Translations under genes and position numbers: made by a program
In this document: positions 6,399-54,647 of the stretch, in pieces
How positions within the stretch are numbered: the first letter of the stretch is position 1
How the letters are laid out: every line of letters begins with the position of its first letter
The notes under the pieces: model-generated
What the model was told of the DNA's origin: nothing
The model's database searches: none
Seen by the model: only the letters and a program-made list of their open reading frames with translations
Source of the DNA: an uncultured bacterium
GTDB lineage: Bacteria; Patescibacteriota; Minisyncoccia; Phycocordibacterales; CAIZLB01
Direction of reading: 5' to 3'
NCBI GenBank assembly: GCA_903936565.1
Contig: CAIZVZ010000009.1
Coordinates: 44,840 to 108,839 of the forward strand
Length of the DNA: 64,000 bases

Positions 6399-7139
6399 TT
6401 AGATAAAATAGCTTTTTTGGATCAATAGCACTTCCTCTTCTATAAGTCCATACTCGGATTCAGGAAATACCCCTTCAATTACGATTGGGGTATTTTTTGT
6501 AAGTGATTGTGGCGGTATATTACCAGATCTCGCAAAGGGAAAATGTGTTGTCTTAATAGCCTCAATACTTTTAAAAAATTCGCTTGTTGGTGTTGAAAAA
6601 TGAATTCCTAAGATATTATTTTGTAAATGATCAAGCTCACTATCCAAACTATCCTTTTGAATTTCATCTATGTGATCAATATCCAAAATTATTGGATATG
6701 GTCCTAGTATAGAAATATCTTTTAAATGCTGGAATCCAAACTTTCTCATATCAGAATTCTCTAGCCCAAATTTAAATTGCGGAGAAATCTTCCCTACCTC
6801 CATTTCAGTCATTGAAAAATCGTCACAATGCCAAACTGCGTATTCAATATTCAATCTCTTCATAATTACAGAAATTTTCTCAAGAATTTCATTTAGATCT
6901 TTAGCGTAAGGAGAAATTGATGGAAGGTGAAAAGAGCACGATAAACCTTTTGTCTTTTCCTTATATAGATCGAGAAGTTTGTCATCAAACTTTAAAATAT
7001 CCTCCACGGAAAAATGTATCTCAACTCGACTTACGTATTTTTTAAGTATATCTATTATAGAAAGTTGCTCATTAATCCAATCCTTTTGTGGGACCCAGAA
7101 ATAAAGACACTCTGTACTTATTCCAATTAAATTATTCAT
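6399..7139 (-). CDS. hypothetical protein (246 aa)
   Basis: Complete ORF with no confident domain assignment. Confidence 0.45.
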   Translation of the reverse strand: MNNLIGISTECLYFWVPQKDWINEQLSIIDILKKYVSRVEIHFSVEDILKFDDKLLDLYKEKTKGLSCSFHLPSISPYAKDLNEILEKISVIMKRLNIEYAVWHCDDFSMTEMEVGKISPQFKFGLENSDMRKFGFQHLKDISILGPYPIILDIDHIDEIQKDSLDSELDHLQNNILGIHFSTPTSEFFKSIEAIKTTHFPFARSGNIPPQSLTKNTPIVIEGVFPESEYGLIEEEVLLIQKSYFI

Positions 7140-8038: not shown

Positions 8039-9244
8039 TTAGATCACCCTCTCCACGGCCTCCACAATCAACTTCCCTGCTTTAATAATTTCTGATTTGG
8101 TTGTGTATTTTCCAAGAGTTATACGAAGTGAAGATTTTGAGCACTCGTCTCCTGCGATTTCTTTTACAACATATGAATATGAATCTTCTGTAAGAGTTCT
8201 GCAGCTTGTTACAGAGGAAACACAAACTCCCAAAACATCGAGTGTCAAAACAAGAAACTCAGCGTCGACTTCGGGAATACAAATATTCAAATTATTTGGA
8301 AGTCTCTCACCTTGTGCGGTTGAACCATTTACGGTAAATCTTTTTCCTATTTTTGATGATTTTAAATTCAAAAACAACATATCACGCAACACTTCAATCC
8401 TTTTGAACTCCTTTGCTTTTTCCCTTTCAACCTTCTCTAGTGCTAATGTAAAGCCTGCAACACCTGGCAGATTTTCTGTTCCAGCACGTCTTCCGCTTTC
8501 CTGACTTCCTCCGCTTGTGATTGACTTAAATGGAACAATTCTTTTCACAAACAAAGCACCAACCCCTCTTGGACCATAAATCTTTCCACCATCGAGTGTC
8601 ATTAAATCAACATGAAGGGACGGAATTCTCATTGAAAGATAGGAAACGGCCTGTGATGCATCCGTATGCAAAAAAGGCATATCAAATTCTGTTCTTCCTT
8701 GCTCCTTTTTATACTCTCTAAGTTTTTTTGCAATTGCCGGTAGCGGCATAATTGTTCCAATTTCATTATTAGCATACATTACGCTCACCAATATGGTGTT
8801 TGGTTTTAGCACCTCAGCAATTTTTGTAGGCTCTATAACTCCCTCTTCGTTTGGAGAAATTAAGGACAATTCAATCTCCCCTGTTTTTTCAAGTGAGAAT
8901 AGAAGTTCTCTGATTGATGGATGTTCAATTGTTGAACTAATTACATGAGGCATTTTTCCGCCAACCTCTTGTTTGTCAGATTCATATCCTAAAATCACGC
9001 CCTTGATAGCAAGTGCGTTTGACTCGGTTCCACCAGATGTGAAGATGATCTCATCACTATGTGCTTCAAGCACAACCGCTGTCCTCTTTCTACAAGATGC
9101 CAAAAACTCACCCGATTCTACTCCCTCTCTATAAATTGAAGATGGATTTGCAACGTATTTTTTCGAAACTCGAAAGACCTCCTTTGACACGATGGGGTCA
9201 ACAGGAGTAACAGAAGCGTAATCTAGGTAAATTCTTTTGGACAT
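8039..9244 (-). CDS. cysteine desulfurase (NifS/IscS class V aminotransferase)
   Basis: MSKRIYLDYASVTP start, SGGTESNALAIKG, and LDGGKIYGPRGVGALFV at the PLP-lysine region. Start chosen at the internal Met instead of the ORF-track start at 9292. Confidence 0.85.
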   Translation of the reverse strand: MSKRIYLDYASVTPVDPIVSKEVFRVSKKYVANPSSIYREGVESGEFLASCRKRTAVVLEAHSDEIIFTSGGTESNALAIKGVILGYESDKQEVGGKMPHVISSTIEHPSIRELLFSLEKTGEIELSLISPNEEGVIEPTKIAEVLKPNTILVSVMYANNEIGTIMPLPAIAKKLREYKKEQGRTEFDMPFLHTDASQAVSYLSMRIPSLHVDLMTLDGGKIYGPRGVGALFVKRIVPFKSITSGGSQESGRRAGTENLPGVAGFTLALEKVEREKAKEFKRIEVLRDMLFLNLKSSKIGKRFTVNGSTAQGERLPNNLNICIPEVDAEFLVLTLDVLGVCVSSVTSCRTLTEDSYSYVVKEIAGDECSKSSLRITLGKYTTKSEIIKAGKLIVEAVERVI

Positions 9245-9313: not shown

Positions 9314-9802
9314 ATGTTTTACTTAAGTCCTGACATCCTATCTATTGGCCTGATTTCACTTTCCGCCGTAGTTTTAATATTATTAATACTCATTATTAGA
9401 TTGCAAGTCCGACTTAAAAGACTACTTAAAGGCAACGCAAAATCTCTTGAGGAAAGCATTGATCTTGTTATTAAACACGTAGAAGATTTAGAGGCTTTCA
9501 AAAAGGAATCTCAAGAATACCTAAAACTTGTGGAGAAACGCCTCCGAAACGGAATTCAAGGAGTTGACACACTCAGATTCAATCCATTCAAGGGAACGGG
9601 TGCAGGAGGAAACCAAAGCTTTTCAACCGCTTTCGTAAACGAACAAGGAGACGGAGTTGTATTTTCATCCCTATACTCCAGCGACAGAATGAGCGTTTTT
9701 GCAAAACCACTTCAAAAGTTCAAGTCATCATTTGAGCTAACAGAAGAAGAAGCAAAGTCAATAGCAATGGCACATGATAAGTTAATACTGCCGAAGGCAT
9801 AG
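9314..9802 (+). CDS. hypothetical membrane-anchored coiled-coil protein (162 aa)
   Basis: N-terminal TM segment and a charged helical region. Confidence 0.45.
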   Translation: MFYLSPDILSIGLISLSAVVLILLILIIRLQVRLKRLLKGNAKSLEESIDLVIKHVEDLEAFKKESQEYLKLVEKRLRNGIQGVDTLRFNPFKGTGAGGNQSFSTAFVNEQGDGVVFSSLYSSDRMSVFAKPLQKFKSSFELTEEEAKSIAMAHDKLILPKA

Positions 9803-9846: not shown

Positions 9847-11427
9847 ATGGAAATTCAAACATCAGACGCTAGACCTCCGGTTGTAGTGGTAATGGGACAC
9901 ATTGACCACGGTAAATCGACACTCCTAGACTACATTAGAAAAACTAACGTGGTCGATAAAGAAGTTGGTGGAATTACACAAAGAATGTCTTCATATGAAG
10001 TTGTTCACAAATCAACCGATGCTAATGGAAAAGATGCATCGAAGACTATTGTATTTATCGACACCCCAGGACATGAGTCCTTTAGCGCAATCAGAGCAAG
10101 AGGAGCAACTGCCGCTGATATTGCAATTCTAGTCGTATCAGCCGAAGACGGTGTTAAACCTCAAACGCTAGATGCACTGAAGGCAATCAAGGACGCAGGA
10201 CTTTCATATATCGTCGGGATTAGTAAGATAGACAAACCAAACGCAGATATCGATAGAGTTAAACTATCGTTAGCAGAGAATGAAATCTATGTTGAAGGTT
10301 ACGGAGGAAATATTCCATGGGTAGCATTCTCTGGTAAGACAGGACAAGGAGTTGATGAATTACTTGATCTAATTCTCCTAACCGCTGAAGTTGATGAAAT
10401 AAGTGGAGATCCTTTTACCGATGCAGAATGTATCGTAATTGAAGCCAACAGAGACAAGGTTAGAGGAGTTTCTGCAACACTAATCGTTAAAAACGGAACA
10501 CTCTACACAGGCTCGTTCATCGTTTCTGGTACCGCCCTCTCCCCTGTTAGAATCATGGAAAATTTTCTAGGAAAGCCTCTAAAAGAAGCTGGCCCTTCTA
10601 CTCCAGTTCGTGTTGTCGGTTGGACTGATGAGCCTGAAGTCGGTGGAGTTTGCTTTACATTTGGAAGTAAAAAATCTGCAGAAATTTATATTGAGGACGA
10701 GATGATAAAAGTTAAGGAAAGAAGTGAAGCACTTGAGAAAGTTCGTAAGTCCGACAAGATAATTGCAACAAACAAAGCTAACGCGCTGGCGTTTGAAAAT
10801 GGCGAAGAGATTATCGAGACAGTTACTATCCCAGTAATAATCAAAGCAGATACTTCAGGATCTGCTGAGGCTGTAGTTTATGAAATTAAAAACAAGATTT
10901 CAGTTCCTAATATTGAAATCAGAATTGTAGCCATGAGTATTGGCGACGTATTGGAAAATGACATCAAACTAGCATCTGGAAAAGAAGGAACCGTTGTTCT
11001 GGGATTTAATACAAAGGTTGATAATAGCGCTAAGAGTATGGCTGAAAGGAATGGTATTCACATAATGACTTTTGACATCATTTACAAAATGACAGAGTGG
11101 CTACAAGCTTTTGCTGAAGAGAATCGACCAAGAACTCAAATTGAGGAATCAAAGGGAATGATTAAAGTTCTTAAAATATTTAGCGTTAATAAAGATAAGC
11201 AAGTTCTTGGAGGAAGAGTTGAGGTTGGCTCAATTTCCTTTAATGATGAAGTGAAGATTTTAAGACGCGACATTGAAATTGGAAGAGGTCGAGTTCGTGA
11301 ACTACAACACCACAAAGAGAAAACAAGCACAGTCGATGAAGGCTTAGAATTTGGTTCAATGATCGAATCAAAAGTTGAGATTACAGCTGGAGATAAATTA
11401 GAGTCAATACAGAAGGTTATTAAATAG
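9847..11427 (+). CDS. infB: translation initiation factor IF-2 (short form)
   Basis: G-domain motifs VVVVMGHIDHGKSTLLD and DTPGHE. C-terminal beta-barrel domains. rbfA lies immediately downstream. Confidence 0.9.
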   Translation: MEIQTSDARPPVVVVMGHIDHGKSTLLDYIRKTNVVDKEVGGITQRMSSYEVVHKSTDANGKDASKTIVFIDTPGHESFSAIRARGATAADIAILVVSAEDGVKPQTLDALKAIKDAGLSYIVGISKIDKPNADIDRVKLSLAENEIYVEGYGGNIPWVAFSGKTGQGVDELLDLILLTAEVDEISGDPFTDAECIVIEANRDKVRGVSATLIVKNGTLYTGSFIVSGTALSPVRIMENFLGKPLKEAGPSTPVRVVGWTDEPEVGGVCFTFGSKKSAEIYIEDEMIKVKERSEALEKVRKSDKIIATNKANALAFENGEEIIETVTIPVIIKADTSGSAEAVVYEIKNKISVPNIEIRIVAMSIGDVLENDIKLASGKEGTVVLGFNTKVDNSAKSMAERNGIHIMTFDIIYKMTEWLQAFAEENRPRTQIEESKGMIKVLKIFSVNKDKQVLGGRVEVGSISFNDEVKILRRDIEIGRGRVRELQHHKEKTSTVDEGLEFGSMIESKVEITAGDKLESIQKVIK

Positions 11428-11434
11428 AATATAA

Positions 11435-11773
11435 ATGAAATCAAAAGCAATAATCAAACCTCATAGAGACGAACGAACAATACACATCATCAAGGAGTTG
11501 GCGATGGATTTTATGTCGCGTGAAGCTAACAGGACATCGTTGGTGACTGTTACTAATGTAATCCTTGGTGATAGAGCAAAGAAGGCCACAATCCTTCTCA
11601 GCGTCCTTCCTGAGGATAAGGCACCGGTTGTTGAAGAATTTGCAAATAGAAAGTGCAATGAATTCAGAAGTTATGTTAAAAGTCACTCAAAGCTGGGTAT
11701 AATCCCCTTCTTTGATTTCAAAATAGATTTGGGTGAAATCAATAGACAGAACATAGACAGAATGTTAAAATAG
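11435..11773 (+). CDS. rbfA: ribosome-binding factor A
   Basis: 112 aa. Sits in the conserved infB-rbfA position. KH-like pattern (RTSLVTVTNVIL..D...A). Confidence 0.7.
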   Translation: MKSKAIIKPHRDERTIHIIKELAMDFMSREANRTSLVTVTNVILGDRAKKATILLSVLPEDKAPVVEEFANRKCNEFRSYVKSHSKLGIIPFFDFKIDLGEINRQNIDRMLK

Positions 11774-13503: not shown

Positions 13504-14787
13504 TTATTTATCTTTTAGAACACAATCATTAGCAACCTTAATAAAATATCCCCTATTTAGTCTTAATTTATTTTCAAATGGCTTTGAAAACTTACGTGTA
13601 TCAAAGAGGTCACTAACTATACTAGTGTGAGTATATATAGTAGCCAAAAATTGCCATGGTCCCCTATCAATTTTACAATCGCCCAAAATATCACTGAAAT
13701 TTAAACGATTAAAATTAGAACCTCCGTCATATTCCTCTCTTTGACCGTAGGCGCTGATTGGCGCACCAATCAAATTCCAACCAGCCTTTAATTTAACACC
13801 ACTTGTCGTCACAGACTTCTTACCAGAAACAAGTATCTCACAATCAATGTCTGATATAGTATTTTTCTTTGTTTGTATTTTTACCCAAACTCCTTTACCA
13901 GCAGGAATCTTTCCTCCTTCTTTTAGGTTACCTAAATTTTCATAATTCTTTGAGCTATTATTCCACCCCCACATCGTAGCCTGATTACATGTGCTTTCCA
14001 GAACTGTTCCATATCCATCACCATCTTCCATGTATATTGAGAATAAGTTCCAGCCTGTTCCAAATGTGACTTTTGAACCGTCTATAATAGTTAAATCAAC
14101 AGAATCTTTACCATAATCATTGACATGAACATAAGAACCAAGAGAAGTTCCCACGCCTTTCCCAACACCAATATATTCATCAATTTTCTTTCCCTGACTA
14201 TTATAGAATGAGAAATAAGGACTACTCCATCTTTGATCAAACGAATCTAGTTTTAATTTGTAACCATTTCCCAAGGTGGTTTCATCTCCAATCTTAAGTA
14301 CAACTTTTTTACCGTTTTTATAAGTCAGAGTTTTGTTGACCTCTTCTATTTTTTTACTTTCTTTACTTGTTACCATCTTTGGCAAAGACTCGTCTATGGA
14401 GGCAATATTCACCCTCACCTTTTCATAAGCTTTTACTAATGGAGAACCGGTTGGAGAAGTTTTGCCCAAAAGCTCTAGTGATTTAATTTCCACCTTTAAT
14501 TTTGAGTCTGTTCCAAATTTCTTCCCAACCTCCGGCTTGGACACAGTATTCTGAAAAGGTGCCCCAGGATATTCTTTTCCTTTTGGATCAAATAACTTAA
14601 AATTAAATTCCTCACCAGAATAACCCCAAAAAATTCCTATAATTTCAACCTTCCAACCATTATCTAATTTAATAACGTCACCCTTCTTCACTTCATGAGT
14701 ACCATCGCCCGAAAAGTCAGAAGCGTAAGCCAAGAAAGGCATCAAAACTACAATTAACAATGTTAATAAGTATGGTAATTTTCTCAT
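13504..14787 (-). CDS. secreted hypothetical protein (427 aa, signal peptide)
   Basis: N-terminal signal peptide (LLIVVLMPFLAYASD). Gly/Lys-rich. No known domain recognised. Confidence 0.55.
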   Translation of the reverse strand: MRKLPYLLTLLIVVLMPFLAYASDFSGDGTHEVKKGDVIKLDNGWKVEIIGIFWGYSGEEFNFKLFDPKGKEYPGAPFQNTVSKPEVGKKFGTDSKLKVEIKSLELLGKTSPTGSPLVKAYEKVRVNIASIDESLPKMVTSKESKKIEEVNKTLTYKNGKKVVLKIGDETTLGNGYKLKLDSFDQRWSSPYFSFYNSQGKKIDEYIGVGKGVGTSLGSYVHVNDYGKDSVDLTIIDGSKVTFGTGWNLFSIYMEDGDGYGTVLESTCNQATMWGWNNSSKNYENLGNLKEGGKIPAGKGVWVKIQTKKNTISDIDCEILVSGKKSVTTSGVKLKAGWNLIGAPISAYGQREEYDGGSNFNRLNFSDILGDCKIDRGPWQFLATIYTHTSIVSDLFDTRKFSKPFENKLRLNRGYFIKVANDCVLKDK

Positions 14788-14946
14788 ATTTAAATGATAA
14801 CATATTTATTTTAAATAACTATCTAGGTATGCACCCGTACTGGACTTTTTACATATTTATGTTAATTTACTTAAGGCTTTGTCAGAAGAACTTAGTAAGT
14901 CTTCCCCTCTCAACCCCAATCAACACAAACCCCAGACCCAAACCGA

Positions 14947-15393
14947 ATGAAACCAGTTATCTTAGTCTTGTTTGCAACAATCTGCTACGCAATCGCCAAC
15001 TCAATTCTCGAGACGAGGTTGTCAAAGTACAACCCACTTTCATTAATGATTTGCTATTTGCCTATTGTGCTGACATGCGCAGTTCTTGCACGCGTCTTCA
15101 CCAAAGTGGAGAATCCATCCTTCGATTTCCCAACAGGGAGCGCTGTCGCTGCGGTAGTTATCCTAGGAGTAGTATACTCCGTAGCTGACTACCTATACAT
15201 CGGCTCATACGCAGTGGGTGGATCGTCAATTACAATCACAAGTGTCCTGACGACGATGCCAATATTTGTCTCTGTCATCAAACTGCTGTCAGATGGCAAA
15301 CTCCCCAACAAATGGCAAATTGGCAGTTACGTTCTAATTTGCATCGCCCTCGCATTAATGGCAAAAGGCAGCGCTGTTACAACGACAAAATAA
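14947..15393 (+). CDS. hypothetical 4-TM membrane protein (148 aa)
   Basis: Hydrophobic segments. Confidence 0.45.
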   Translation: MKPVILVLFATICYAIANSILETRLSKYNPLSLMICYLPIVLTCAVLARVFTKVENPSFDFPTGSAVAAVVILGVVYSVADYLYIGSYAVGGSSITITSVLTTMPIFVSVIKLLSDGKLPNKWQIGSYVLICIALALMAKGSAVTTTK

Positions 15394-15510
15394 CACGAGA
15401 TGCCATTCACCGACAGTCACAATCCCAACCCTACAAGGAGCCGCCCTCTTAGTGGGGCTTCTGATTTTTAATATTTTAAAATAGACCACTAATCACGTAT
15501 AATATAGATA

Positions 15511-16182
15511 ATGTCCAAGAAACCTATTCTAAAATTATTATTCATATTCATAATTGGAATAATCACTATTTTACTTATACAGAACTCGTACTTAAGTTAT
15601 AATTTTTATAACAATATTTTCAGATTATCACAAGAACAAGTTCAGGGATCCTTAATCGTGACAACGCGTCAATGTGAAAAAGTAAAGGACTGCAAACTAC
15701 AACCTGGTGACATACTAATCCGTAGATATATCACGGACAGAACAAGACTTATTGATAGACTATTTCATCCATATTTTACGCATTCAGCTTTTTATCTGGG
15801 AGACGGCCTGCTTGTAGAAGCGGTTGGCACTGAGAAAAATCGTGAAGACGACATACAAATTAGCGAATTATCCAAAAGCGATTGGTTAAACCCCGATGTG
15901 TATAATTTTGTCATCATTAGACCTAAAAACTATTCTTCCAAATTAGACATTATAAAATATAATCTATTGCAAATTGCAAACGATTCCGACTACTTTTTTG
16001 GAATACCAACTCAGGGTGAAAAAAAGGCAACATGCGCGGACCTAATTTATAATCAATTGTCAGATCAATATATTATTAACGCCTCAAATACAGCAAATGT
16101 AATAACTCCAGATTATTTGTTTTTTACACTTACTAGTGATTCAAATAATTTTGAAGTAATTGGCTTTAATATACAAAAATAG
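15511..16182 (+). CDS. membrane-anchored YiiX/YaeF-like permuted papain-fold protein (tentative)
   Basis: N-terminal TM segment. GDILIRRY...HSAFYLGDGLLVEAVG, with a later Cys (ATCADLIY) in the His-before-Cys order of the permuted NlpC/P60 fold. Confidence 0.4.
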   Translation: MSKKPILKLLFIFIIGIITILLIQNSYLSYNFYNNIFRLSQEQVQGSLIVTTRQCEKVKDCKLQPGDILIRRYITDRTRLIDRLFHPYFTHSAFYLGDGLLVEAVGTEKNREDDIQISELSKSDWLNPDVYNFVIIRPKNYSSKLDIIKYNLLQIANDSDYFFGIPTQGEKKATCADLIYNQLSDQYIINASNTANVITPDYLFFTLTSDSNNFEVIGFNIQK

Positions 16183-16203
16183 TTTTTATATTAACCAACA
16201 AAC

Positions 16204-16680
16204 CTAGAAGAAGTAACTAGAGGCAAAGTAAGCAAAGATGCCACCAAACAAAATTATTTCGGCTGCAATTACGTATATAATAAACTTTATGTTCCACTTT
16301 CTAGCATAGACACTGATAGCGTAGAAGATAGCAAAAATGATTGCCGACAAGGTAAAGGTAATACCAAGCAGGGCCGGACCTAGCTCGCAGAGCTTACCCG
16401 TACACGTATTGTAATCATATATAAAATATGGAAGTGGCAACAACAGCAAGATAGGTATTCCATATCCAAAACGGTCTTTAAGTCTACTATTTGATCGCGA
16501 AATCATAACAGGCACTGCAGACAAGACAATAGAAAAACACATCACAACAGAGAACACTGGTTGCTCTATTAATTCAAACAAATTTTCCAATCCAGTAGTA
16601 AAAATCATAGCTAAAGCTACGGCAATATTTTCGATTATCACAGCCAGCCAAATATAAAAGGGTCTTTTGTCTATTTCCAT
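16204..16680 (-). CDS. hypothetical polytopic membrane protein (158 aa)
   Basis: Four hydrophobic helices. Lies immediately downstream of the pilin-like array. Confidence 0.45.
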   Translation of the reverse strand: MEIDKRPFYIWLAVIIENIAVALAMIFTTGLENLFELIEQPVFSVVMCFSIVLSAVPVMISRSNSRLKDRFGYGIPILLLLPLPYFIYDYNTCTGKLCELGPALLGITFTLSAIIFAIFYAISVYARKWNIKFIIYVIAAEIILFGGIFAYFASSYFF

Positions 16681-16830
16681 AAATTTTGATTATTTTAATT
16701 AATATTTTATTAGTATAAGTATAACAAATACCACAAACAATATCACGCTCGAACATAGTACTCCACACAAACAAAAAACACAGAGAATGACTCTGTGTTT
16801 TTTGTTTTATACGAGGCTCCTTAGAATAAT

Positions 16831-17121
16831 CTAAAGCTTCCTAATATTCATGATGCTCCCTGTTGGTCCGCCAACACTGTTTGATATAACCGTCATTATA
16901 CCAAAAACGGTGAACATTATTGCAAATCCAATAATACTCCATAATATATGATTTCTACCTGTCTCCCTTGCTTTTGGATCGCCCGCTCCTCTTACATACT
17001 TAAAAACACCCCATAAGAAAACCACCATTGCAACCGCAAATCCCAAGACAATAAGTGGATTAATTACAAATCTGTTTATAGAGCTTATAAGTGCCTGAAG
17101 TGCAGGAGGTATATTTCCCAT
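16831..17121 (-). CDS. small two-TM VirB2/TrbC-like pilin-like protein, paralog 1 (96 aa)
   Basis: Hydrophobic helix, charged loop (GAGDPKARETGRNH), second hydrophobic helix. Shares the FLWGVFK motif with neighbours. Confidence 0.55.
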   Translation of the reverse strand: MGNIPPALQALISSINRFVINPLIVLGFAVAMVVFLWGVFKYVRGAGDPKARETGRNHILWSIIGFAIMFTVFGIMTVISNSVGGPTGSIMNIRKL

Positions 17122-17178
17122 AATTATTTTATATTATTTATTAGATAAAATTACTCAATGTGAGCAATATACCGATAA

Positions 17179-17502
17179 TTATCTTAATTGAATTGAACCA
17201 TTCGCTGATGGTACGCCAGGAGCTTGAGGAACGTTTTGATTCAAACTGAATGTACTTGTTAGAAGATTTACCAATCCCCAAACTGATACCATCACAGCAA
17301 GACCAATAATACCCCAAATGATGTATCCTCTAGCCTCTGCTCTAGCTTCAGAATCCTTTGAGGAGAAAACTAGTTTAAAGATACCCCACAAGAAAAACAG
17401 AACCGTAAGACTTATAACGTAAGGAATAAGCCTTGTCGTGAAATCACTCACTTGCGCGAGTAACGCATAAAGGCCGCTAATTCCAGGTTGTGCAGTGTTC
17501 AT
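17179..17502 (-). CDS. VirB2/TrbC-like pilin-like protein, paralog 2 (107 aa)
   Basis: FLWGIFKLVFSSKDSEARAEARGYIIWGIIGLAVMVSVWGLVNLL. Same architecture as paralog 1. Confidence 0.55.
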   Translation of the reverse strand: MNTAQPGISGLYALLAQVSDFTTRLIPYVISLTVLFFLWGIFKLVFSSKDSEARAEARGYIIWGIIGLAVMVSVWGLVNLLTSTFSLNQNVPQAPGVPSANGSIQLR

Positions 17503-17624
17503 AATTAAATTATTTTTATTAAATGATAAGCTTATCTTTTATATAAGTAACTGAATGTCACTTATTACTATTATACATCACTATTTGAAAGTTACATACA
17601 TAGTCAACAAAAAAGCTGTGGATT

Positions 17625-17927
17625 CTAAAAAAGTCTAGGAGATGGAAAACCGGGGACCATTGCACCTGTTACACCAAAACCAAAAAAGGATATCAACAAA
17701 TTGACCAATCCCCATATCGATACCATAACAAACAATGCAACAACTCCCCATACAATATAGCCTTTAGCTTGTGCCCTTTCCTTAGAATCCCTATTAGAAA
17801 AGACTAATTTAAAAATTCCCCAAAGGAAAACCAGTACAGTCAGTATTAATATGAATGCGATAAACTTGTTAATAAAACCTATCAAAAATGGTACCAACCC
17901 CCTTGCTCCGTTCGAAGTATTTAGCAT
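17625..17927 (-). CDS. VirB2/TrbC-like pilin-like protein, paralog 3 (100 aa)
   Basis: FLWGIFKLVFSNRDSKERAQAKGYIVWGVVALFVMVSIWGLVNLL. Confidence 0.55.
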   Translation of the reverse strand: MLNTSNGARGLVPFLIGFINKFIAFILILTVLVFLWGIFKLVFSNRDSKERAQAKGYIVWGVVALFVMVSIWGLVNLLISFFGFGVTGAMVPGFPSPRLF

Positions 17928-17952
17928 GTTAGTTAATTAGTATCAATATTTA

Positions 17953-18267
17953 TTAATTAAGCTGAGGAATCAACAATCCTCCTGAGAAGAAGGTTGTTGT
18001 CAAAAGGTATACTAAGCTCCAAACAGAAATCATTACAGCGAGCCCGACAATTCCATAGGTAATAAAGGCGATTCCCTCTTGTCTTTTTTTAGGATCAGCC
18101 CCTGATGTTACAGTTTTAAAAACGCCCCATAAAAAAACCAGCAGTGCTAATGAAATAATAAAGGGTACAATATAGCCCCTAATTATATCTATTAAACTAG
18201 CAACAAGACTTCTGAAATCGTATACACCATTCACTTGTGCCATTAAAGAATTTTTATTTAAATCCAT
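17953..18267 (-). CDS. VirB2/TrbC-like pilin-like protein, paralog 4 (104 aa)
   Basis: FLWGVFKTVTSGADPKKRQEGIAFITYGIVGLAVMISVWSLVYLL. Confidence 0.55.
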   Translation of the reverse strand: MDLNKNSLMAQVNGVYDFRSLVASLIDIIRGYIVPFIISLALLVFLWGVFKTVTSGADPKKRQEGIAFITYGIVGLAVMISVWSLVYLLTTTFFSGGLLIPQLN

Positions 18268-18322
18268 TTTTATAAGTTAAGCTAATAATTTATTCTACCA
18301 TAGTCCAAATTTAGACTCCATA

Positions 18323-18727
18323 CTATTGCCCACTACCAACCTGCATAATTGTGGTTCTAACAACAATAGAAATTGCTTGTGCGCCAAAAATTATGGCGAC
18401 ACCAATAACAACATATAGAAGCATGGTTCTTGCCTTCGTAATCTTTGCAGGGTCCCCAGCCGCCAAGACAAACTTCAGACCAGCAAGGATGATGTATACA
18501 ACAGATAGGACACCAGCAATGATCTGAACTGTAGTAATTATAATGCTCAAAACTTGATCAAGGGTTGTCGTGCTACCTAGGGGGTTAGTAATTCTTCCAC
18601 TGGTATCATTGGTTGTATCTGCATATACCATGTTGGCATGTGGTGTGGTCACAAAACTTAGACCGAATACCGACACTAGCATCATGGCTCCCATAACTGT
18701 GTGTAAAATTAATTTATTTTTTTTCAT
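18323..18727 (-). CDS. VirB2/TrbC-like pilin-like protein with signal peptide, paralog 5 (134 aa)
   Basis: Signal peptide, then VYIILAGLKFVLAAGDPAKITKARTMLLYVVIGVAIIFGA. This is the classic VirB2 layout (signal peptide, helix, charged loop, helix). Confidence 0.55.
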   Translation of the reverse strand: MKKNKLILHTVMGAMMLVSVFGLSFVTTPHANMVYADTTNDTSGRITNPLGSTTTLDQVLSIIITTVQIIAGVLSVVYIILAGLKFVLAAGDPAKITKARTMLLYVVIGVAIIFGAQAISIVVRTTIMQVGSGQ

Positions 18728-18747
18728 TTTATTGACTTATTAACCTA

Positions 18748-19176
18748 TCATATTATGCTATCGTAAAAAAACGGATCAACACCCAAACTCTTTAGTATAA
18801 AGTATACAATAATCCAACCACAAAGTGTATATGCCAAACCCCACATCATCTTGGTGAGCATATCTCTTGCCTTCTTAACCTTGCCCACGTCCCCTCCTGA
18901 AGTCAAATACATAAACCCTGTGTAAAGAAGAACCAAAACTAACAATATCGCAATCAGTTGAACACCATAATGCACAATAGCGTTTATCAAGTTTATCAAA
19001 TCAACCCAACCGCATGATGCTCCGGCTAATGTACAGCCACTTAGGATATTGGACACTGGATTAACTGTATCTGCACCTGCGTATATCGGACTAAATACTG
19101 CAATAAGGGCAATCACAGCCACAAGCTTCATAGTTGGTATAAACGAGAACATTTTATAAAATTTAATTTTTATCAT
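18748..19176 (-). CDS. VirB2/TrbC-like pilin-like protein with signal peptide, paralog 6 (142 aa)
   Basis: Signal peptide, then VLLYTGFMYLTSGGDVGKVKKARDMLTKMMWGLAYTLCGWIIV. Confidence 0.5.
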   Translation of the reverse strand: MIKIKFYKMFSFIPTMKLVAVIALIAVFSPIYAGADTVNPVSNILSGCTLAGASCGWVDLINLINAIVHYGVQLIAILLVLVLLYTGFMYLTSGGDVGKVKKARDMLTKMMWGLAYTLCGWIIVYFILKSLGVDPFFYDSII

Positions 19177-19235
19177 TTTGGTTTGTTGTATTATAACACA
19201 TTAAGTCTTCACTAAAACGGCTTAAGCCAGCTAAT

Positions 19236-20564
19236 TTACCTATTTGGATTCGAGCTCGATATCAAGCTTTCCAATTTCTGATTAAGACCATTTCTCGCTT
19301 CGCTACTTGAAACCTTACCGGTTGTTATTTGATCTATAAACTCTCTAAACATTGAATCTGTTATAGTCGAATTTGGATCCAACCATGTCTTTGATTGAAT
19401 GGTTGCTCTAGCAAATAAATCACCATATGTATTTGCACCAGAAGGTACTGCAAGAATATCTCTTCTGGCCGATGGTAAATTATTTATTTTAGTTAATTCA
19501 GTTTGAGCTTGAGATGATACCAATTGCGTCATAACAACAATTGCCGCAGCTTGATTTCTTGACTGCTTTACAAGGGCTAATGCTTTTATCTTCGCATAAG
19601 AGGTGGACTGAACATTCTTTGCCCTATTTTCATCTTGCGGCATTAAGGCTACATCAAAATTTAAATTAGGATTCTTTCTTTGCAAAATAGGATATTCACT
19701 AGCATAACCAAAATACATTGCCAAATTACCAGCAACAAAAGCATCTCTGGAATTTACAAGCGACTTATTCCAAGAATATCTTTCATTATTAGGATTTGAG
19801 AAGGATGTATAAAAGTTAGTAGATCCCTCAAGTACATTTACACCCTCGGCTGACGGTGTATCCGCTGTTGAAACATATCTTTTAACCCCCTGGTCAAATT
19901 CTATTAAATTATTTCCACCTTGTAGCATCAGGTTAACAAAGATTTCTTTAGAATGGTTAACATTAGATGATTCCCCAAGCGCCACAGCTGATTTAATAAT
20001 TTCTGATCTATCGGTTCTCTGCGTCAAACTTGGAATATCAGAACTTAATTGCTGCCATGTTTTTGGAGGGGAAACGATAGCTGCATCATTGAACATTGTC
20101 TTATTCCAATACATCACCAACGGATCAACACTAAAAGGTAAAGCGTAAATTCCATCGGCTGCCACAAAAATATTTGTTGAATCGATGAAGGTGTCAGTAT
20201 ATGTTCTTTGAGGTAGAGTCTTGAATGAAATTGGCTGAAGTTTTGCTTTCCATGAAAATAACTTTGAATCATCTATCATCACAATGTCGGGCCCTTTACC
20301 TTCAGCTAAAGCATTCACAAACTCGGATTCATACGTGTCAATATTTTTTTGAATATAAGTAACATTCATAACTTTTTTCTGAGGATCTATAGCTTCAAGA
20401 AGATTTTTGAACTCAGTCTCTGGCTCAGTTCCCCACACAACAGCGCTAACCGCTGAGTTATTTGACGAATTAGTGAATGCTGCAAAAATTATTACACCGA
20501 CAACTGCTGCAAAAATGAATACTCCGATGAGAATCACTTGAAATGGGCTTGATGATTTATCCAT
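19236..20564 (-). CDS. membrane-anchored extracellular solute-binding protein (ABC transporter SBP family 1-like)
   Basis: N-terminal TM anchor. Size and composition fit sugar-type SBPs. No permease or ATPase genes are adjacent. Confidence 0.5.
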   Translation of the reverse strand: MDKSSSPFQVILIGVFIFAAVVGVIIFAAFTNSSNNSAVSAVVWGTEPETEFKNLLEAIDPQKKVMNVTYIQKNIDTYESEFVNALAEGKGPDIVMIDDSKLFSWKAKLQPISFKTLPQRTYTDTFIDSTNIFVAADGIYALPFSVDPLVMYWNKTMFNDAAIVSPPKTWQQLSSDIPSLTQRTDRSEIIKSAVALGESSNVNHSKEIFVNLMLQGGNNLIEFDQGVKRYVSTADTPSAEGVNVLEGSTNFYTSFSNPNNERYSWNKSLVNSRDAFVAGNLAMYFGYASEYPILQRKNPNLNFDVALMPQDENRAKNVQSTSYAKIKALALVKQSRNQAAAIVVMTQLVSSQAQTELTKINNLPSARRDILAVPSGANTYGDLFARATIQSKTWLDPNSTITDSMFREFIDQITTGKVSSSEARNGLNQKLESLISSSNPNR

Positions 20565-20580: not shown

Positions 20581-21114
20581 TTAATCTTTAAATTTAAACA
20601 CTAGGCCGTAATGATAGTCCCCCGCATCAAATTCTCTTTCTTGAATCATGTTCTCCCTATCAAACCAAGAGGCAATATGCTCTTTTGGGATTATGCAGTC
20701 TGGGTGGGGACCAAAGTGATTATATGAGTCAACCCAATCTATTACAGCAATTTTCCCCTTCAATTTTAAAATTCTTACAGCTTCCTTTACAGCCCTTTCT
20801 GGATGATCACAAACAAACAATGTGTTTGCAATTATCACCCTATCTACACTTGCATTAATTAAACCAGATCCATTGGGCGACTCTATGTCCCCTCTCAAGA
20901 CTTCAACGTTTTTATGATGAAAAATCTTTGCTTCATTTGCAATTCTAGTCAACAAATCCGCCCTTGTATCTATTGCATAAACTTTTCCATGTGGACCAAC
21001 TTTTTTTGCAAGCGCCATTGTAAAATATCCAGCACCAGCATCAAAATCTACAACAGTCATACCTTCTGCAATATTCATGTCGTGTAATGTTTTTTCAGGT
21101 TTAACAAAACTCAT
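20581..21114 (-). CDS. class I SAM-dependent methyltransferase
   Basis: Motif I VVDFDAGAGYFTMALA. Acidic loop after beta2 (YAIDTRADLL). Confidence 0.75.
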   Translation of the reverse strand: MSFVKPEKTLHDMNIAEGMTVVDFDAGAGYFTMALAKKVGPHGKVYAIDTRADLLTRIANEAKIFHHKNVEVLRGDIESPNGSGLINASVDRVIIANTLFVCDHPERAVKEAVRILKLKGKIAVIDWVDSYNHFGPHPDCIIPKEHIASWFDRENMIQEREFDAGDYHYGLVFKFKD

Positions 21115-43360: not shown

Positions 43361-46300
43361 TTATCTCTGTGTCTTAGATTGATCAGTAACAGACATTCGA
43401 TAGGTTTGACTAACTTTCTTTGATGAATTTGCGACTTGAACCGAGAAAGAATAATCCCCTAATAATCTTGGCCATCCGCTGATACTAGCTTTGTTTGTTT
43501 CAGAGCTTGTACAAGTAGAGTTTAGAAGAGCTGTGCACACTATTGTTTCCTTATTAAGCAACAAACCTGGCGGCAATGCTCCGTCCAAAATAGTCCACGT
43601 TAGATTTGAAATGCTTGAACTTGCAAAACCTGTTGCGGTCAATATTTGCTGATAGAAAGGTCCATTAGTTACAGCATCAGGCAAAGTTATGGGGCTTATT
43701 GACATGTCTGTTGTGGATGAATTTGGGTTTGAAGATGAAGCTTGTAGTCTCAGCTTAGCCAAAAGGGCTCTTGTTGCTTGTCCAAAGTTTCCAGTTGCGG
43801 GAGTAATCTTGTTGGCCTTCTGGAATTTTATTAGTGCTTTTTTTGTTAAAGCCCCAAAATATGTTGACTCTTTTCCCACAGAGCCTGTGCCAGTAGGAGA
43901 TATTATAAAACCACTAGAGTTAAGAAGTATTTGAAGAGCCTTAACATCATTTCCTGTTGAACCAACATTCAAATTTCTGTTAGACAATGCAATGTTTTTT
44001 AGTGAGGTCACAAGCGAAGGCGAAGTTACGGCACCAGGTACTAAACTGTATACAGTGTTGGCCGATGACGATGCGATTGTATTTACCAAGTTTACTGGAG
44101 AGTACGAAGAACTTCCCCCGCTTCCTCCGCCGCCTCCCCCACCACCTCCTCCGCCGCCGCCACCAGCAATAGGTGGAGGTAGAGGGGCCTTAGGTAATAC
44201 AACGGCGTCAATTACATTTAATTCCACAGTATTACTGTCACCAGTTGTGGGATGATTAACACTTACAATATAATCTCCTGGTGGAACATTGGGGGTAAAT
44301 TGGATTACCTGCCCACCTCCTGTACTCACAGCTGTTATCGAAGTGGAACTACCCGTTGATCTATTGAACAAATTTACAGTGTTTCCTGAGTCGGCAAATC
44401 TAATACCCTGAAGAGAGATGGCCAAGTTAGATGGAGTAGAAGTAGCGGAGATTGAAGTAATAATTGGACAGACCTCACCAATAACAGCAATATCATTCGT
44501 GCTGTTATTTGATGAAAATCTTATAAAACTTTGATTTGGATATTTACCTAATGTAATTCCATAAAGTACGCCATGATACAAACCAGCAAACATAGACTTG
44601 GGGTTAGATGATGCGTTTACAGTAAACGTTGCAGTAGTATTTGCTGGAATAATATAGTAATCATTCGAGTCATCTGACGATGTAGCAATTGTACCTGTTG
44701 CTTGTTCATAATATTGACGTCCATATGTGCGCATTGAGGAACAACCCAAGTCTACTGGGCAACTTGAACTCGAATCAATAAATGAATTAAAACTATAAGT
44801 TTGCGAAATGAATTGGTCTTCACTACCCGCATCAACTGCAACATTAAATGTACTTATCAATTCACTTTCCCCATTAGCACCATCATAAGAAAGCGCTAAA
44901 GTGGATGAACCAACAATTGTCACTTGTGGAGGTTTTTGTACTGCAATGGCAACCGAACTTGTAGCAACACAACCGAAACATCCTGTTCGCTGATTATCGT
45001 GGAGTGTTGTAGTCCAATCCATAGCAGTACTATCGTATGCTGTTCCCAAATCAAGCGCAAACAACATTAATCTATTATCATTTCCAAAACCATAGTGAAA
45101 ATCTGAAGGTAGCTCCATTGCCTCCAGAACAATATCTGACTTTCCATCACCGTTAAAGTCATCGACAATCACAGGTGAACCCCAAAAATCTTCTATCGCC
45201 CCAAGGGTTGGTACTTCTATATTTCTTTCCAAAACACCAGCTTTATTTAATATCTGCACACCGGAATTATTACCATCAAAAAAGCGAGATCTATAGCTGA
45301 GAATAATTTGTGACTCTCCATTATTATTTACATCCCCTATTGCAATAGATTCTATATTAGGATTTGTAAACACATAGCCACTTTCGTCGTTTGAAAAAAT
45401 TGTATTCAATGAACCATCAAGTAACATTATTTTATTACTTTGTGATACCGCTCCATATGTATCTTTAAGCACAGCAACAATACCGGGAGTGCTTGTTCCT
45501 ATAAGTTTACCAATGGCTATTTGAGATGCAGAATATCCAAAAATCGGCGAGGATGATGCAACTATATTTCCTTCACTGTCTATAATATTGATGTAAGTAG
45601 TATAAGCATTAGGATTAGATGAATTAGCTTTAAATAGGTCTTTGTCTACAGTACTATACATAAATACCATTTCTGTATTTCCATCATTATGAAAATCTGC
45701 CACTGCAGGTAAAGCAATAGTAATTTGTTCATTTTTACCAGTACCATCATGCATGAGCACTTTATTCAATAGTTGATTATCAGAAGAATACGCATTTATA
45801 TATAATCTGGTATTATCAAAAACATCAAAGTACACTGGGTCCCTATCATAAACTCCGGTTACGACGACCATGTTTTGATTGGTAGTTGATCCATTGTTTA
45901 TATTTCTCAAGAAGGATGGGTGCTGCGCTGAAAATGCATGTGAACTAGTACCTTCAATTGCATCAGATACTACTAATGGGAAATTGCTCATTTTTTTCCC
46001 TTGAAAGTCATACCCGTGCAATCTAATCTTTTGATTAGTAGCATTGATTGATAGCCAATAGACCTCAGGAGTGCCGTCATAGTTTCTATCAAATATAGTA
46101 CTTGGTGAAAAAAAATCAGTCCTATCCTGTAAGATTGTTTTATGAACAACACCATCTAGATTTGTAATATAGGCTGATCCGATACTGTTCACGGTAGCCA
46201 TAAAGTTTTTCTTACCTACGGCGTCGTAATAAATTGCAGGCATTGGATCATCTGCAATTTCAGATCCATCACTTAATGACGAAAGAACAGTATGAGAACC

Positions 46301-48640
46301 ATCACTATTATAAAAATAAAACGTGTAAGGAGGCTCACAAACTCCAAGGGCGCAATTAGAGTAATACGGAACCACCATCCTTTTAGTGGACTGGTCACCG
46401 TCATCCCTAACAATACTTTGTACACCCCTTGGAAAACCTTCTAGCTGTTGGGGCCAATTATTTAGCAACTCCTTTAAAACAACAAACTGAAAAGGATCAC
46501 TTTTCTTCCAAACACCCTGAGATAGTACCTCCAGATAAAGTGAGTGTTTTCCATTTTGCAATATATTAAAATCAACAGAGCATGTCATTTGCACATCATA
46601 AACTGAACTACCACTACATAGAACCGTTCCTGTTACTGCATCATCTGCAAGTATCCTAAAATTAGTTCCTTCTGGGTATAAAATCCTAAATTTTATAGCT
46701 TGAGTGCTACCATTAACATAATTTAAATTATTTCCAACAGATTCAATCCATTCATTTTTTACATCCAACACAGCAACATCTTCACTCGTACTTCCATTTG
46801 TATTTTGGACACTTAGCTTAATCGTATAGTAGCCTTCATCGAGAGATTTTGTATCCAAGGAATAAAGTTTACCGTTTGTAACCTGCTGACTTGATGTTGA
46901 GATGACAGTAAATGAATTTCCAAAACTAGGTGGATAACCATTAGTGTACGAAAGGGTATAACTCGAAAAATTATCGAATGCTGTTGCGGTACCAACGATG
47001 TCCACAATTCCCTGCCCTATTGGCATCGCTGCCAAGTGAGAAACTGGTGGTCTAGAAATCCCCACAGACTGAAGTACATCAATTCTTCCATAACCCACAT
47101 TATTATAATTAGGAGAAATATACTTAGAGCCATTCATAATAGCCGCCTTAACCTCTGCTGGAGTCCAATTAGGATGTAATTGTAATATAAGTGCCGCTTC
47201 TCCAGCAACATGAGGAGTCGCCATTGAAGTTCCTGAAAGTGAGATATGATTTGCATCATTATTACATGCTGTATCTCCTTCTCCCGCAAAAGAAGTGCCC
47301 CAATGCGCCGCACAAATATTTACACCTGGAGCTGTTACATCCGGTTTTGCAAGAGACATTTGAGTTCCACTTGCATTGACCCAAATTACAGGGCCCCGGG
47401 CACTAAAAGAGGCAATGTTATCATCATTGTCAGTTGCTCCAACGGTAATTGCATTTCTGGCTGTACCCGGTGAATTAATTGTTCTAGAATTTGGTCCAGA
47501 GTTTCCAGCTGCAACAGTTACAACAACGCCATTAGCAACAGCATTATCTACTGCCTTTGACATATCATCATCGGGGTCACCAACCCCTCCAAGACTCAAT
47601 GACGCAATATCTAAGTGGTCCGAAACATCTCCATCATGATTAGGGTCAACAGCGGCCTCTATCCCAGCGATGATATTATCAGAAGTTCCCGAACCCGTAC
47701 TATTCAAAACCTTATATGCATATATTGTTGCCCCAGGAGCAACTCCCTTAAGTACACCGTTTCCAGCCGCAATAGAAGCTACATGCGTTCCATGTCCATC
47801 ATCATCCATTGGATCATTATCATTATTAACAAAGTCGTATCCACTAAATACCTTACAATCTACTGTTGTCGTTCCAACTTGTGTACCATAACAGCCCCCA
47901 AGATCAGGATGTAGATAGTCCACACCTGTATCAATTATTGCAATTGTTATACCACTACCTGTTATTGAAGTGCTCGCAACAGCCCCTGCCCAAACTTCTG
48001 GAGCATGGATTAGTGGAACAGAATTCATTAGCGACGCTTTTACAGTTTTAACTTTTTCAATACTTTTTACGTTAGAAAGCTTTTTAAGTTTTGCCAACTC
48101 ATCGCCATTAATGTTTAACACTACAGCATTCAAAACTGCATTAAATCTGTGTAATTTGTTTTTTGACGTTAGTGGATTATTCCTCGCAGCAACCGATGCT
48201 GGTAAGGTACTTAAAAATGAGCTTTGCTGATTTATTATTTTTGTCCTTTGATTTTGTAGTATAGTTCTTGTAGCTTGAGAGGCAAGCACCAGATTCCCTT
48301 TTGGATTTTTTAACCTCATGCTTTTTACAGTCGAGGAAATGGACGGCTCTTTAAGTTCTACAATGTATCTCTGAACCGAATTATCCTTCTCTGGAATGAA
48401 GTCGGCATTTTGAATTTTTAATCTTGGTAACGATGAATCCAATCCGCTTGTCAGAAGAGTGCTATTTAACCTTTTCAAGGCGTTACTTTGTCCTGTAGAC
48501 AGTGCGGATAAAGATTGCTGTATTTTAGATGGGGCTACCTGAGACTCACTTGCAAAAGTAGTGGTTGCAAAAACTATAGCTACCAAAAGACCGAATGTAG
48601 TAATTGAAACTAATGAGAAAAAATACTTACGCCTAGTCAT
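43361..48640 (-). CDS. giant secreted subtilisin-like (S8) serine protease with FG-GAP-like repeat region, poly-Gly linker and C-terminal peptidoglycan-binding domain
   Basis: Signal peptide. Catalytic triad contexts IAIIDTGVDYLHPDL (Asp), DDGHGTHVASIAAGN (His), GTSMATPHVAGEAA (Ser). GGGGGGGGGGGGGGSGGS tract. PG_binding_1-like GNDVKALQILLNSSGFIISPTGTG...TKKALIKFQKANKITPATGNFG. Confidence 0.85.
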   Translation of the reverse strand: MTRRKYFFSLVSITTFGLLVAIVFATTTFASESQVAPSKIQQSLSALSTGQSNALKRLNSTLLTSGLDSSLPRLKIQNADFIPEKDNSVQRYIVELKEPSISSTVKSMRLKNPKGNLVLASQATRTILQNQRTKIINQQSSFLSTLPASVAARNNPLTSKNKLHRFNAVLNAVVLNINGDELAKLKKLSNVKSIEKVKTVKASLMNSVPLIHAPEVWAGAVASTSITGSGITIAIIDTGVDYLHPDLGGCYGTQVGTTTVDCKVFSGYDFVNNDNDPMDDDGHGTHVASIAAGNGVLKGVAPGATIYAYKVLNSTGSGTSDNIIAGIEAAVDPNHDGDVSDHLDIASLSLGGVGDPDDDMSKAVDNAVANGVVVTVAAGNSGPNSRTINSPGTARNAITVGATDNDDNIASFSARGPVIWVNASGTQMSLAKPDVTAPGVNICAAHWGTSFAGEGDTACNNDANHISLSGTSMATPHVAGEAALILQLHPNWTPAEVKAAIMNGSKYISPNYNNVGYGRIDVLQSVGISRPPVSHLAAMPIGQGIVDIVGTATAFDNFSSYTLSYTNGYPPSFGNSFTVISTSSQQVTNGKLYSLDTKSLDEGYYTIKLSVQNTNGSTSEDVAVLDVKNEWIESVGNNLNYVNGSTQAIKFRILYPEGTNFRILADDAVTGTVLCSGSSVYDVQMTCSVDFNILQNGKHSLYLEVLSQGVWKKSDPFQFVVLKELLNNWPQQLEGFPRGVQSIVRDDGDQSTKRMVVPYYSNCALGVCEPPYTFYFYNSDGSHTVLSSLSDGSEIADDPMPAIYYDAVGKKNFMATVNSIGSAYITNLDGVVHKTILQDRTDFFSPSTIFDRNYDGTPEVYWLSINATNQKIRLHGYDFQGKKMSNFPLVVSDAIEGTSSHAFSAQHPSFLRNINNGSTTNQNMVVVTGVYDRDPVYFDVFDNTRLYINAYSSDNQLLNKVLMHDGTGKNEQITIALPAVADFHNDGNTEMVFMYSTVDKDLFKANSSNPNAYTTYINIIDSEGNIVASSSPIFGYSASQIAIGKLIGTSTPGIVAVLKDTYGAVSQSNKIMLLDGSLNTIFSNDESGYVFTNPNIESIAIGDVNNNGESQIILSYRSRFFDGNNSGVQILNKAGVLERNIEVPTLGAIEDFWGSPVIVDDFNGDGKSDIVLEAMELPSDFHYGFGNDNRLMLFALDLGTAYDSTAMDWTTTLHDNQRTGCFGCVATSSVAIAVQKPPQVTIVGSSTLALSYDGANGESELISTFNVAVDAGSEDQFISQTYSFNSFIDSSSSCPVDLGCSSMRTYGRQYYEQATGTIATSSDDSNDYYIIPANTTATFTVNASSNPKSMFAGLYHGVLYGITLGKYPNQSFIRFSSNNSTNDIAVIGEVCPIITSISATSTPSNLAISLQGIRFADSGNTVNLFNRSTGSSTSITAVSTGGGQVIQFTPNVPPGDYIVSVNHPTTGDSNTVELNVIDAVVLPKAPLPPPIAGGGGGGGGGGGGGGSGGSSSYSPVNLVNTIASSSANTVYSLVPGAVTSPSLVTSLKNIALSNRNLNVGSTGNDVKALQILLNSSGFIISPTGTGSVGKESTYFGALTKKALIKFQKANKITPATGNFGQATRALLAKLRLQASSSNPNSSTTDMSISPITLPDAVTNGPFYQQILTATGFASSSISNLTWTILDGALPPGLLLNKETIVCTALLNSTCTSSETNKASISGWPRLLGDYSFSVQVANSSKKVSQTYRMSVTDQSKTQR

Positions 48641-53541: not shown

Positions 53542-53556
53542 TTGTCTATTTGCTTT

Positions 53557-54609: not shown

Positions 54610-54647
54610 TTCTTGTGGTTGAAGTTTTCAAAGTGCTATGTAGGAAT

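Follow-up and report, generated by a model that had tools for sequence, protein, structure and literature searches.

What does a bacterium make with six small, related membrane proteins encoded side by side on its chromosome? The question is raised by a stretch of 64,000 nucleotides (nt) from an uncultured member of the Patescibacteria (contig CAIZVZ010000009.1, positions 44,840–108,839; hereafter the window), in which six genes, named g1–g6 in the order of transcription, lie on the minus strand. Patescibacteria account for a large share of uncultivated bacteria and are attached to host cells. Few functions have been demonstrated to be essential for this lifestyle; a type IV secretion system (T4SS)-like apparatus, together with an array of pilin genes, is one of them (Wang et al. 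2023, PMC10633639). Here we find that the array of the window belongs to a T4SS pilin family and comprises ancient, ordered paralogue classes under purifying selection, and we argue that its products are probably, if by no means certainly, VirB2-like subunits of the chromosomal T4SS-like apparatus of Patescibacteria, assembled into a heteromeric host-contact structure.

The six open reading frames (ORFs) are co-oriented, encode 96–142 amino acids (aa) and span exactly 16831–19176, the limits given in a preliminary description of the window. The first gene, g1 (18748–19176; 142 aa), encodes a predicted signal peptide (cleavage at about AGA/D), a conserved CxxxxxxCGW segment and a two-helix hairpin, with three hydrophobic segments by hydropathy analysis. 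TrbC/VirB2-like g2 (18323–18727; 134 aa) likewise has a predicted signal peptide (about VYA/D), followed by a variable linker, an invariant NP(L/I) motif and a hairpin. The core pilin-like genes g3 (17953–18267; 104 aa; FLWGVFK motif, with two hydrophobic helices and a basic loop by hydropathy), g4 (17625–17927; 100 aa) and g5 (17179–17502; 107 aa; the most conserved) lack signal peptides, in the case of g5 at least in the window lineage, as does the small terminal pilin-like gene g6 (16831–17121; 96 aa). Intergenic gaps are 20–57 nt, except for a 122-nt AT-rich spacer preceding g5.

The suggestion that these are T4SS pilins, originally made from their pattern, was supported by profile searches: five of the six proteins exceeded the gathering threshold of Pfam PF18895 (T4SS_pilin; 26.6 bits for the whole protein), with scores of 40.0 (g6), 40.7 (g5), 36.2 (g4), 31.0 (g3) and 30.4 bits (g2) and E-values from 2.5e-10 to 4e-7. 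The product of g1 scored 20.0 bits (E = 7.5e-4), short of the threshold; its identity to g2 is 31% (BLASTP E = 1e-7), and g1 orthologues or first-in-array signal-peptide-bearing genes in two related loci (L004 and L005) match PF18895 strongly. Both the PF18895 matches and the g1–g2 match are far beyond chance. Against PF04956 (TrbC/VirB2; threshold 27.9 bits), g2 scored 23.5 bits (E = 6.4e-5) and g1 13 bits, while g3–g6 gave no match, such that strict PF04956 membership is reached by none of the six. When 66 g2 orthologues were scanned singly, however, all 66 matched PF18895 and 46 matched PF04956 (E <= 1e-3; best 8.5e-11), and the family-level link to the classical VirB2/TrbC pilins is therefore real. 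The NCBIfam model NF045849 (Mbov_0395 family pilin-like conjugal transfer protein; cut-off 40 bits) was matched by g6 at 40.0 bits, equal to the cut-off, and by g1–g5 below it (19.8–33.1 bits). A homologue search returned 306 proteins, nearly all PF18895, within a very large family (58,349 cluster representatives at E <= 1e-3). Flp, N_methyl and other pilin families were absent from the Pfam matches of the six proteins even at E <= 1, the type IV prepilin motif (GF(T/E), cut between G and F) was not found at their N-termini, and tblastn of g6 and g2 against 72,556 plasmids gave no match.

All six proteins have the anticipated layout of two hydrophobic helices (segments of about 19 residues) flanking a loop rich in K and R, by hydropathy and charge analysis, which is also the build of the PF18895 domain of about 70 residues; the FLWG(I/V)FK core ascribed to four copies is present in g3–g6; and the extra signal peptides ascribed to the two upstream copies were predicted heuristically in g1 and g2, each with a K-rich start and a hydrophobic segment ahead of the putative cleavage site. 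The ORFs of g3–g6 are already maximal, leaving no upstream coding sequence that could supply a signal peptide. For g5, AlphaFold2 gave a model (predicted local distance difference test score, 77) that agrees with hydropathy in placing a hairpin, with helices at residues 8–46 and 51–88 joined by a turn; the modelled structure neither strengthens nor weakens the family assignment. As to orientation, homologues of g5 elsewhere (124 aa; P0032, P0035 and P0040) carry a signal peptide ending in AxAAQ, which aligns to the start of window g5, MNTAQ. This alignment and the positive charge of the loop together fix both termini outside the membrane and the loop in the cytoplasm, which is the known membrane topology of VirB2-type pilins. 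That window g5 starts near the start of the mature protein implies that this lineage has lost the signal peptide and that insertion does not depend on one, and it is plausible that g3–g6 attain the N-out topology without a cleavable signal, by way of a short uncharged N-terminal tail.

Two cysteine motifs were seen beside these hairpins. In g1, a conserved pair (CTxxGxxCGW) stands immediately ahead of the first helix, and a C...C-NPLG motif occurs in 12 of 72 g2 orthologues (seen in L008–L011) and has been lost from window g2 (NDTSGRITNPLG). Judged from these motifs, either could form an exposed disulphide loop.

Arrays of this kind are already on record, and the window array is one of them rather than something new. 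A survey by PF04956 and PF18895 reported 441 VirB2 arrays of 2–11 genes in 383 of 3,035 Patescibacteria assemblies, defining an array as at least two PF18895/PF04956 genes in tandem or one non-pilin gene apart (Quinonero-Coronel et al. 2025, PMC12102498); the window has six consecutive genes. It fits in every measurable respect: the protein families, phylum, chromosomal location and tandem co-oriented arrangement are the same as in the published arrays (PMC12102498, PMC10633639), including the 'Sec-secreted array' of Nanosynbacter lyticus TM7x; pairwise identity among g1–g6 is 23–54% (local, at the protein level) compared with a published within-array mean of 25% and maximum of 54% (PMC12102498); and there is no relaxase nearby in either case. 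It differs in that four of its six copies lack a signal peptide, and in belonging to the Paceibacteria, whereas published arrays are most abundant in Microgenomatia and Saccharimonadia (PMC12102498). Candidatus Southlakia epibionticum ML1 has an essential six-pilin array inside a T4SS locus (SEML1_0006–0019; Wang et al. 2023, PMC10633639), while the window array is neither in nor near such a locus. A 2025 review highlights the Patescibacteria arrays as the sole exception to monoderm T4SSs lacking VirB2 (PMC12857230). What we add is the recurrence of the array at one locus, its ordered ancient classes, their purifying selection, a neighbouring gene for a solute-binding protein (SBP) and module fusions. 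As far as full-text searching shows, neither PMC10633639 nor PMC12102498 describes the locus of gyrA, methyltransferase, SBP and array, the position-wise orthology or the fusions. The array itself is of modest interest; the leads are the conserved SBP gene beside it, the constant order of its paralogues and the fusions.

Likenesses beyond the phylum are looser. TrbC of RP4 and VirB2 of Agrobacterium share the two-helix hydrophobic hairpin and basic loop, and a signal peptide like theirs is predicted heuristically for g1 and g2, but the window encodes six diverged paralogues where these systems have a single major pilin, its host is a monoderm, and there are no adjacent virB3–virB11 genes. Mbov_0395, from integrative and conjugative elements of Mycoplasma, and PrgF, from the MPF-FATA system of pCF10, are, like the array proteins, small two-helix membrane proteins, and belong to monoderm conjugation systems; the window locus, in contrast, is not on a mobile element, and the NF045849 cut-off is reached by just one of its six copies. 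PrgF shares the architecture of the array proteins and has a G..DP motif in its loop, and FATA_PrgF-profile matches adjoin VirB2 matches in some Patescibacteria genomes (PMC12102498). Homology to pCF10 PrgF was nonetheless not demonstrated (hhalign E = 0.065, probability < 1%), PrgF matching Maff2 weakly and not PF18895; we take PrgF as an architectural analogue only.

We looked for the array in relatives by running a g5-type alignment against GTDB, with each species represented by a single genome; this gave 80 loci titled Paceibacterota, Parcubacteria, Taylorbacteria, Yonathbacteria and Nomurabacteria. These titles place the window in a freshwater metagenome-assembled genome of the Paceibacteria (Parcubacteria), apparently of lake origin. 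All but one contain a co-oriented array, of 4–7 genes where complete and fewer where the contig ends; the exception, L026, has a lone pilin-like gene in a different context. The shared gene order runs S1, beta-lactamase-fold protein, GyrA, methyltransferase, SBP, array, RbfA, IF-2, DUF4446, aminotransferase and ClpB. Proteins identical to array members are also present on many metagenome contigs.

Within this locus the paralogues keep their places. Reciprocal-best matches were found for g1 in 52 of 72 loci, g2 in 72 of 76, g5 in 79 of 82 (second from the 3′ end in 58) and g6 in 67 of 82 (the last array gene in 66). By contrast, g4 was reciprocal-best in only 6 of 82, the remainder going to g5, to which it is 54% identical; g4 is a lineage-specific duplicate of the g5 class. 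The array is thus an ordered set in which at least four ancient paralogue classes hold constant positions: the two signal-peptide-bearing classes come first, followed by the core FLWG(I/V)FK classes and then the small terminal class. It is not a recent amplification. At the DNA level, g1–g6 have just one shared stretch (38 nt at 74%), and with no DNA-level repeats between copies we rejected recent tandem duplication or gene conversion.

The same modules also occur joined together. Many of the top family matches are single polypeptides with 2–17 hairpin modules (fusions of this kind include P0241, P0245 and P0279). One of 368 aa has 3 modules together with a single signal peptide, another of 552 aa has 6, and a third, of 1775 aa, has 17. 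The 3-module fusion P0241 sits within the syntenic methyltransferase–SBP–array locus, and fusions of 2–3 modules were found in eight related loci (L040:8426–9490, L041:2661–3755, L054:7917–8945, L043, L045, L063, L073 and L077), in seven of them at array position 3. Such fusions are topologically possible because each module has both ends outside. They constrain how subunits neighbour each other, and suggest that the core classes are adjacent to one another once assembled.

How might six such proteins work together? In the arrangement that we favour, each would insert in the cytoplasmic membrane as a helical hairpin, with both ends outside and the K/R-rich loop in the cytoplasm, g1 and g2 by means of a cleavable Sec signal peptide and g3–g6 as signal-less hairpins whose short, uncharged N-terminal tail YidC or Sec would translocate. 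Subunits would then be drawn from the membrane pool by a VirB4-type ATPase machine, with its genes at another place in the genome, to yield a heteromeric surface filament or conduit for contact or exchange with the host cell. The most conserved proteins, g5 and g6, are candidates for the bulk subunits, and g1 and g2, with their signal peptides and exposed N-terminal segments, for specialized ones. That the classes are ordered and individually conserved, and that the array is essential in Southlakia (PMC10633639), argues that their roles are not redundant. The reliance on a distant VirB4 machine has indirect support. With relatives serving as a proxy for the window genome, three were found in Table S1 of PMC12102498, two of which (L071, Yonathbacteria, and L077, Nomurabacteria; both array-bearing) are listed there as VirB4 'Yes'. 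Separate pilin and virB4 loci are also common: among 1,948 VirB4-containing pilin-bearing assemblies, a pilin gene was near virB4 in 1135 and away from it in 813 (about 40%; PMC12102498).

Several observations weigh against this arrangement. As the preliminary description had said, VirB4, VirB6 and VirD4 are absent from the window (nor was VirB8 found) in a Pfam scan of 56 long ORFs that covered every ORF of at least 210 aa except two overlapping scanned genes, and no VirB4-sized ORF with a Walker A motif lies within 10 kb of the array in the 80 related loci. The third relative in Table S1, L044 (Taylorbacteria), an incomplete metagenome-assembled genome, is listed as VirB4 'No' (PMC12102498). 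Classical VirB2/TrbC proteins have the signal peptide that g3–g6 lack. When the PDB was searched with a sequence profile built from 50 aligned family members, nothing matched significantly (best E = 0.1, to unrelated proteins) and no solved pilin was recovered, and fold searches with the g5 hairpin were unspecific. Polypeptides of 2–17 modules are awkward for a filament made of individually extracted subunits. Finally, a pilus has still to be observed on a Patescibacteria T4SS, reviews writing of a 'potential to elaborate' one (PMC12857230).

The gene directly upstream of the array leads to the main rival explanation. It encodes a membrane-anchored MalE-like protein of solute-binding fold (19236–20564, minus strand; 442 aa) with an N-terminal transmembrane helix, matching SBP_bac_8 (E = 2.4e-20) and SBP_bac_1 (E = 2.3e-15) in Pfam and, distantly, structures of sugar-binding SBPs in the PDB (best 5ci5, E = 1.5e-9). 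In 69 of the 71 related loci with enough upstream sequence, the first pilin gene is immediately preceded by a co-oriented SBP-family ORF, at a median gap of about 5 bp and with several 4-bp overlaps. Sixteen nucleotides upstream of the window SBP gene lies a gene for a class I S-adenosylmethionine-dependent methyltransferase (20581–21114, minus; 177 aa; Methyltransf_31/11/25 matches); this placement immediately 5′ of the SBP gene is kept in almost every related locus. In L081, however, the SBP is retained beside the array even though the methyltransferase is absent. The SBP gene is probably part of the same conserved unit as the array, whereas the methyltransferase is a conserved neighbour whose membership of the unit is uncertain.

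An intrinsic-terminator-like hairpin (16769–16807, minus; a 17-bp stem followed by a U run) lies directly 3′ of g6 and probably ends the transcription unit; its RNA fold (−22.6 kcal/mol, z = −5.9) was not equalled in stability by any of 200 shuffles, and a simple consensus scan missed it. Within the 59 nt that separate the SBP gene from g1, an extended −10-like consensus match, TGTTATAAT (19190–19198, minus), could be a promoter; the evidence for this is weak because the consensus scan, in an AT-rich region, returned 20 sites against 22 expected by chance.

The hairpins might form not a filament but a hetero-oligomer embedded in the membrane (a channel, platform or anchor) that works with a putatively co-transcribed SBP in the capture or uptake of host carbohydrate or other solutes, independent of or only loosely coupled to a T4SS ATPase. 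We consider this unlikely, though several features favour it: the close SBP adjacency and its persistence in L081, the lack of any permease or ABC ATPase family among the scanned ORFs around the SBP gene, the lack of VirB4 close to the array, the VirB4-negative relative, and the fused polypeptides, which would be membrane proteins of 4–34 passes, some at the same array position. Against it, the family is homologous to TrbC/VirB2 pilins, and arrays of other Patescibacteria classes are located within T4SS loci that are essential along with the arrays (PMC12102498, PMC10633639). The whole region, moreover (S1, gyrA, methyltransferase, SBP, array, rbfA, infB), is syntenic in the class, and because of this synteny, and because the genomes are compact, the SBP adjacency may reflect inheritance rather than function.

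A further proposal is that the hairpins and the SBP, perhaps with the methyltransferase, are encoded by one conserved operon and make up one surface device of the Paceibacteria, in which the SBP would act as a host-glycan adhesin or tip factor, or would hand over solutes to a conduit of hairpins that are ordered and in part fusable. We rate this as distinctly unlikely. If true, it would represent a nutrient-scavenging use of T4SS pilin-like proteins, possibly apart from the VirB4 locus. That the Paceibacteria array travels with a tethered protein of sugar-binding type, and not with virB4, provides a concrete candidate partner.

Do the paralogues instead offer a repertoire of alternative major pilins, with the filament varied for host range or for evasion of host or phage? 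Tandem VirB2 paralogues of Bartonella and Anaplasma phagocytophilum, which likewise stand several diverged genes side by side, have been read as antigenic or host-interaction variants, as relayed in PMC12102498, where the idea of a pilin repertoire is also raised tentatively. The preliminary description had similarly taken graded divergence across the copies as a sign of variable surface filaments. Low within-array identity is in keeping with this, as is the pace of change in the first two genes: compared with the closest relative, L007, by the Nei–Gojobori method, the nonsynonymous rate (dN) was 0.10–0.14 for g1 and g2 against 0.024–0.034 for neighbouring housekeeping genes (3–5 times faster), and the linker that follows the signal peptide varies in length among g2 orthologues. 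By alignment inspection, however, the g1 and g2 substitutions fall mostly in the signal peptide and linker, and the hairpins are well conserved. The ratio of nonsynonymous to synonymous rates (dN/dS) was 0.06–0.16 across all six genes (g3, 0.084; g4, 0.057; g6, 0.075), compared with 0.03–0.05 for the methyltransferase and SBP genes, and g5 is 95% identical to its L007 counterpart. Every copy is thus under purifying selection, and each class probably has a structural role of its own.

Since each class has position-conserved orthologues across about 80 species, the divergence predates the lineages and is not ongoing; unlike those of Bartonella and Anaplasma, the window classes are ancient, ordered and under purifying selection. 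There are also no recombination-prone DNA repeats between copies, and the essentiality of the Southlakia array (PMC10633639) argues against redundancy. We therefore did not uphold the reading of the divergence as variable filaments and regard a repertoire as quite improbable; the classes point to specialized, non-redundant subunits, and paralogues that are ancient, ordered and individually conserved favour a heteromeric structure.

That g1–g6 are unrelated two-pass membrane proteins (holins, bacteriocin immunity proteins or toxin–antitoxin peptides) with a merely compositional likeness to pilins is very improbable: short hydrophobic hairpins do match many membrane families weakly, and fold searches cannot separate them, but the PF18895 scores above threshold, the PF04956 matches of g2 orthologues, the conservation of the array at one locus across the whole class and a housekeeping setting with no phage or bacteriocin genes nearby all speak against it, and a holin, phage or immunity-protein origin is essentially excluded by PHROGs and Pfam searches of the array proteins, in which no holin, lysis or immunity family was matched.

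The setting of the array is an ordinary chromosome: the window encodes ClpB, IF-2, RbfA, GyrA, S1, FtsA, FtsZ, a signal peptidase and a large subtilase, with eight tRNAs. The other envelope proteins that had been noted beside the array, in addition to the SBP, were also recovered. A multi-pass membrane protein (mem158; 16204–16680; 158 aa) has no family assignment; a 223-aa protein (15511–16182) matches the papain-fold YaeF/YiiX-like family weakly (E = 1.5e-4, far below the cut-off). Also in this stretch is a 427-aa secreted protein (13504–14787), likewise with no family assignment. These genes downstream of the array (13504–16680) are common to the closest relatives only (mem158 in L008). In many other related loci the array is followed by a convergent gene whose product, of 400–590 aa, frequently has a hydrophobic N-terminus; the two such products that were scanned matched no Pfam family.

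Individual relatives have features of their own. TraX is the F-pilin acetylase family, and a member (PF05857) is encoded about 8.6 kb downstream of the array in L005 (19028–19693). In L006, a gene of the bAvd/23S_rRNA_IVP family (9420–9788) lies among the pilin genes, a 63-nt hairpin-containing repeat is present in four copies in the array spacers (6602–6664, 8331–8393, 10633–10695 and 11546–11608), and GyrA carries an intein. A diversity-generating retroelement in L006 was considered and rejected, with no reverse transcriptase among the called genes and no template/variable repeat pair standing out; the repeats found were paralogous pilin-coding stretches, a short tandem repeat and intergenic repeats.

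Elsewhere in the window, a 1759-aa protein (43361–48640, minus) combines subtilase, FG-GAP and peptidoglycan-binding domains, and a second PG_binding protein (50746–52179) has a Kre9/KNH-like part; for a small genome, these are two large proteins of the surface or envelope. Beyond them, a GC-rich island on the minus strand (52750–60720; GC 0.44–0.50 compared with 0.32–0.40 nearby) is a Ter-type stress-response cluster. It encodes a vWA–TerF-like protein (52750–53541), TerD (54814–55491), TerC (56961–57809), a HAD and PRTase_3 fusion (58164–59801), a separate PRTase_3 protein (59827–60720) and two long, coiled-coil-looking proteins with no Pfam match (53557–54609 and 55522–56718), and its composition suggests that it was acquired horizontally into this small genome.

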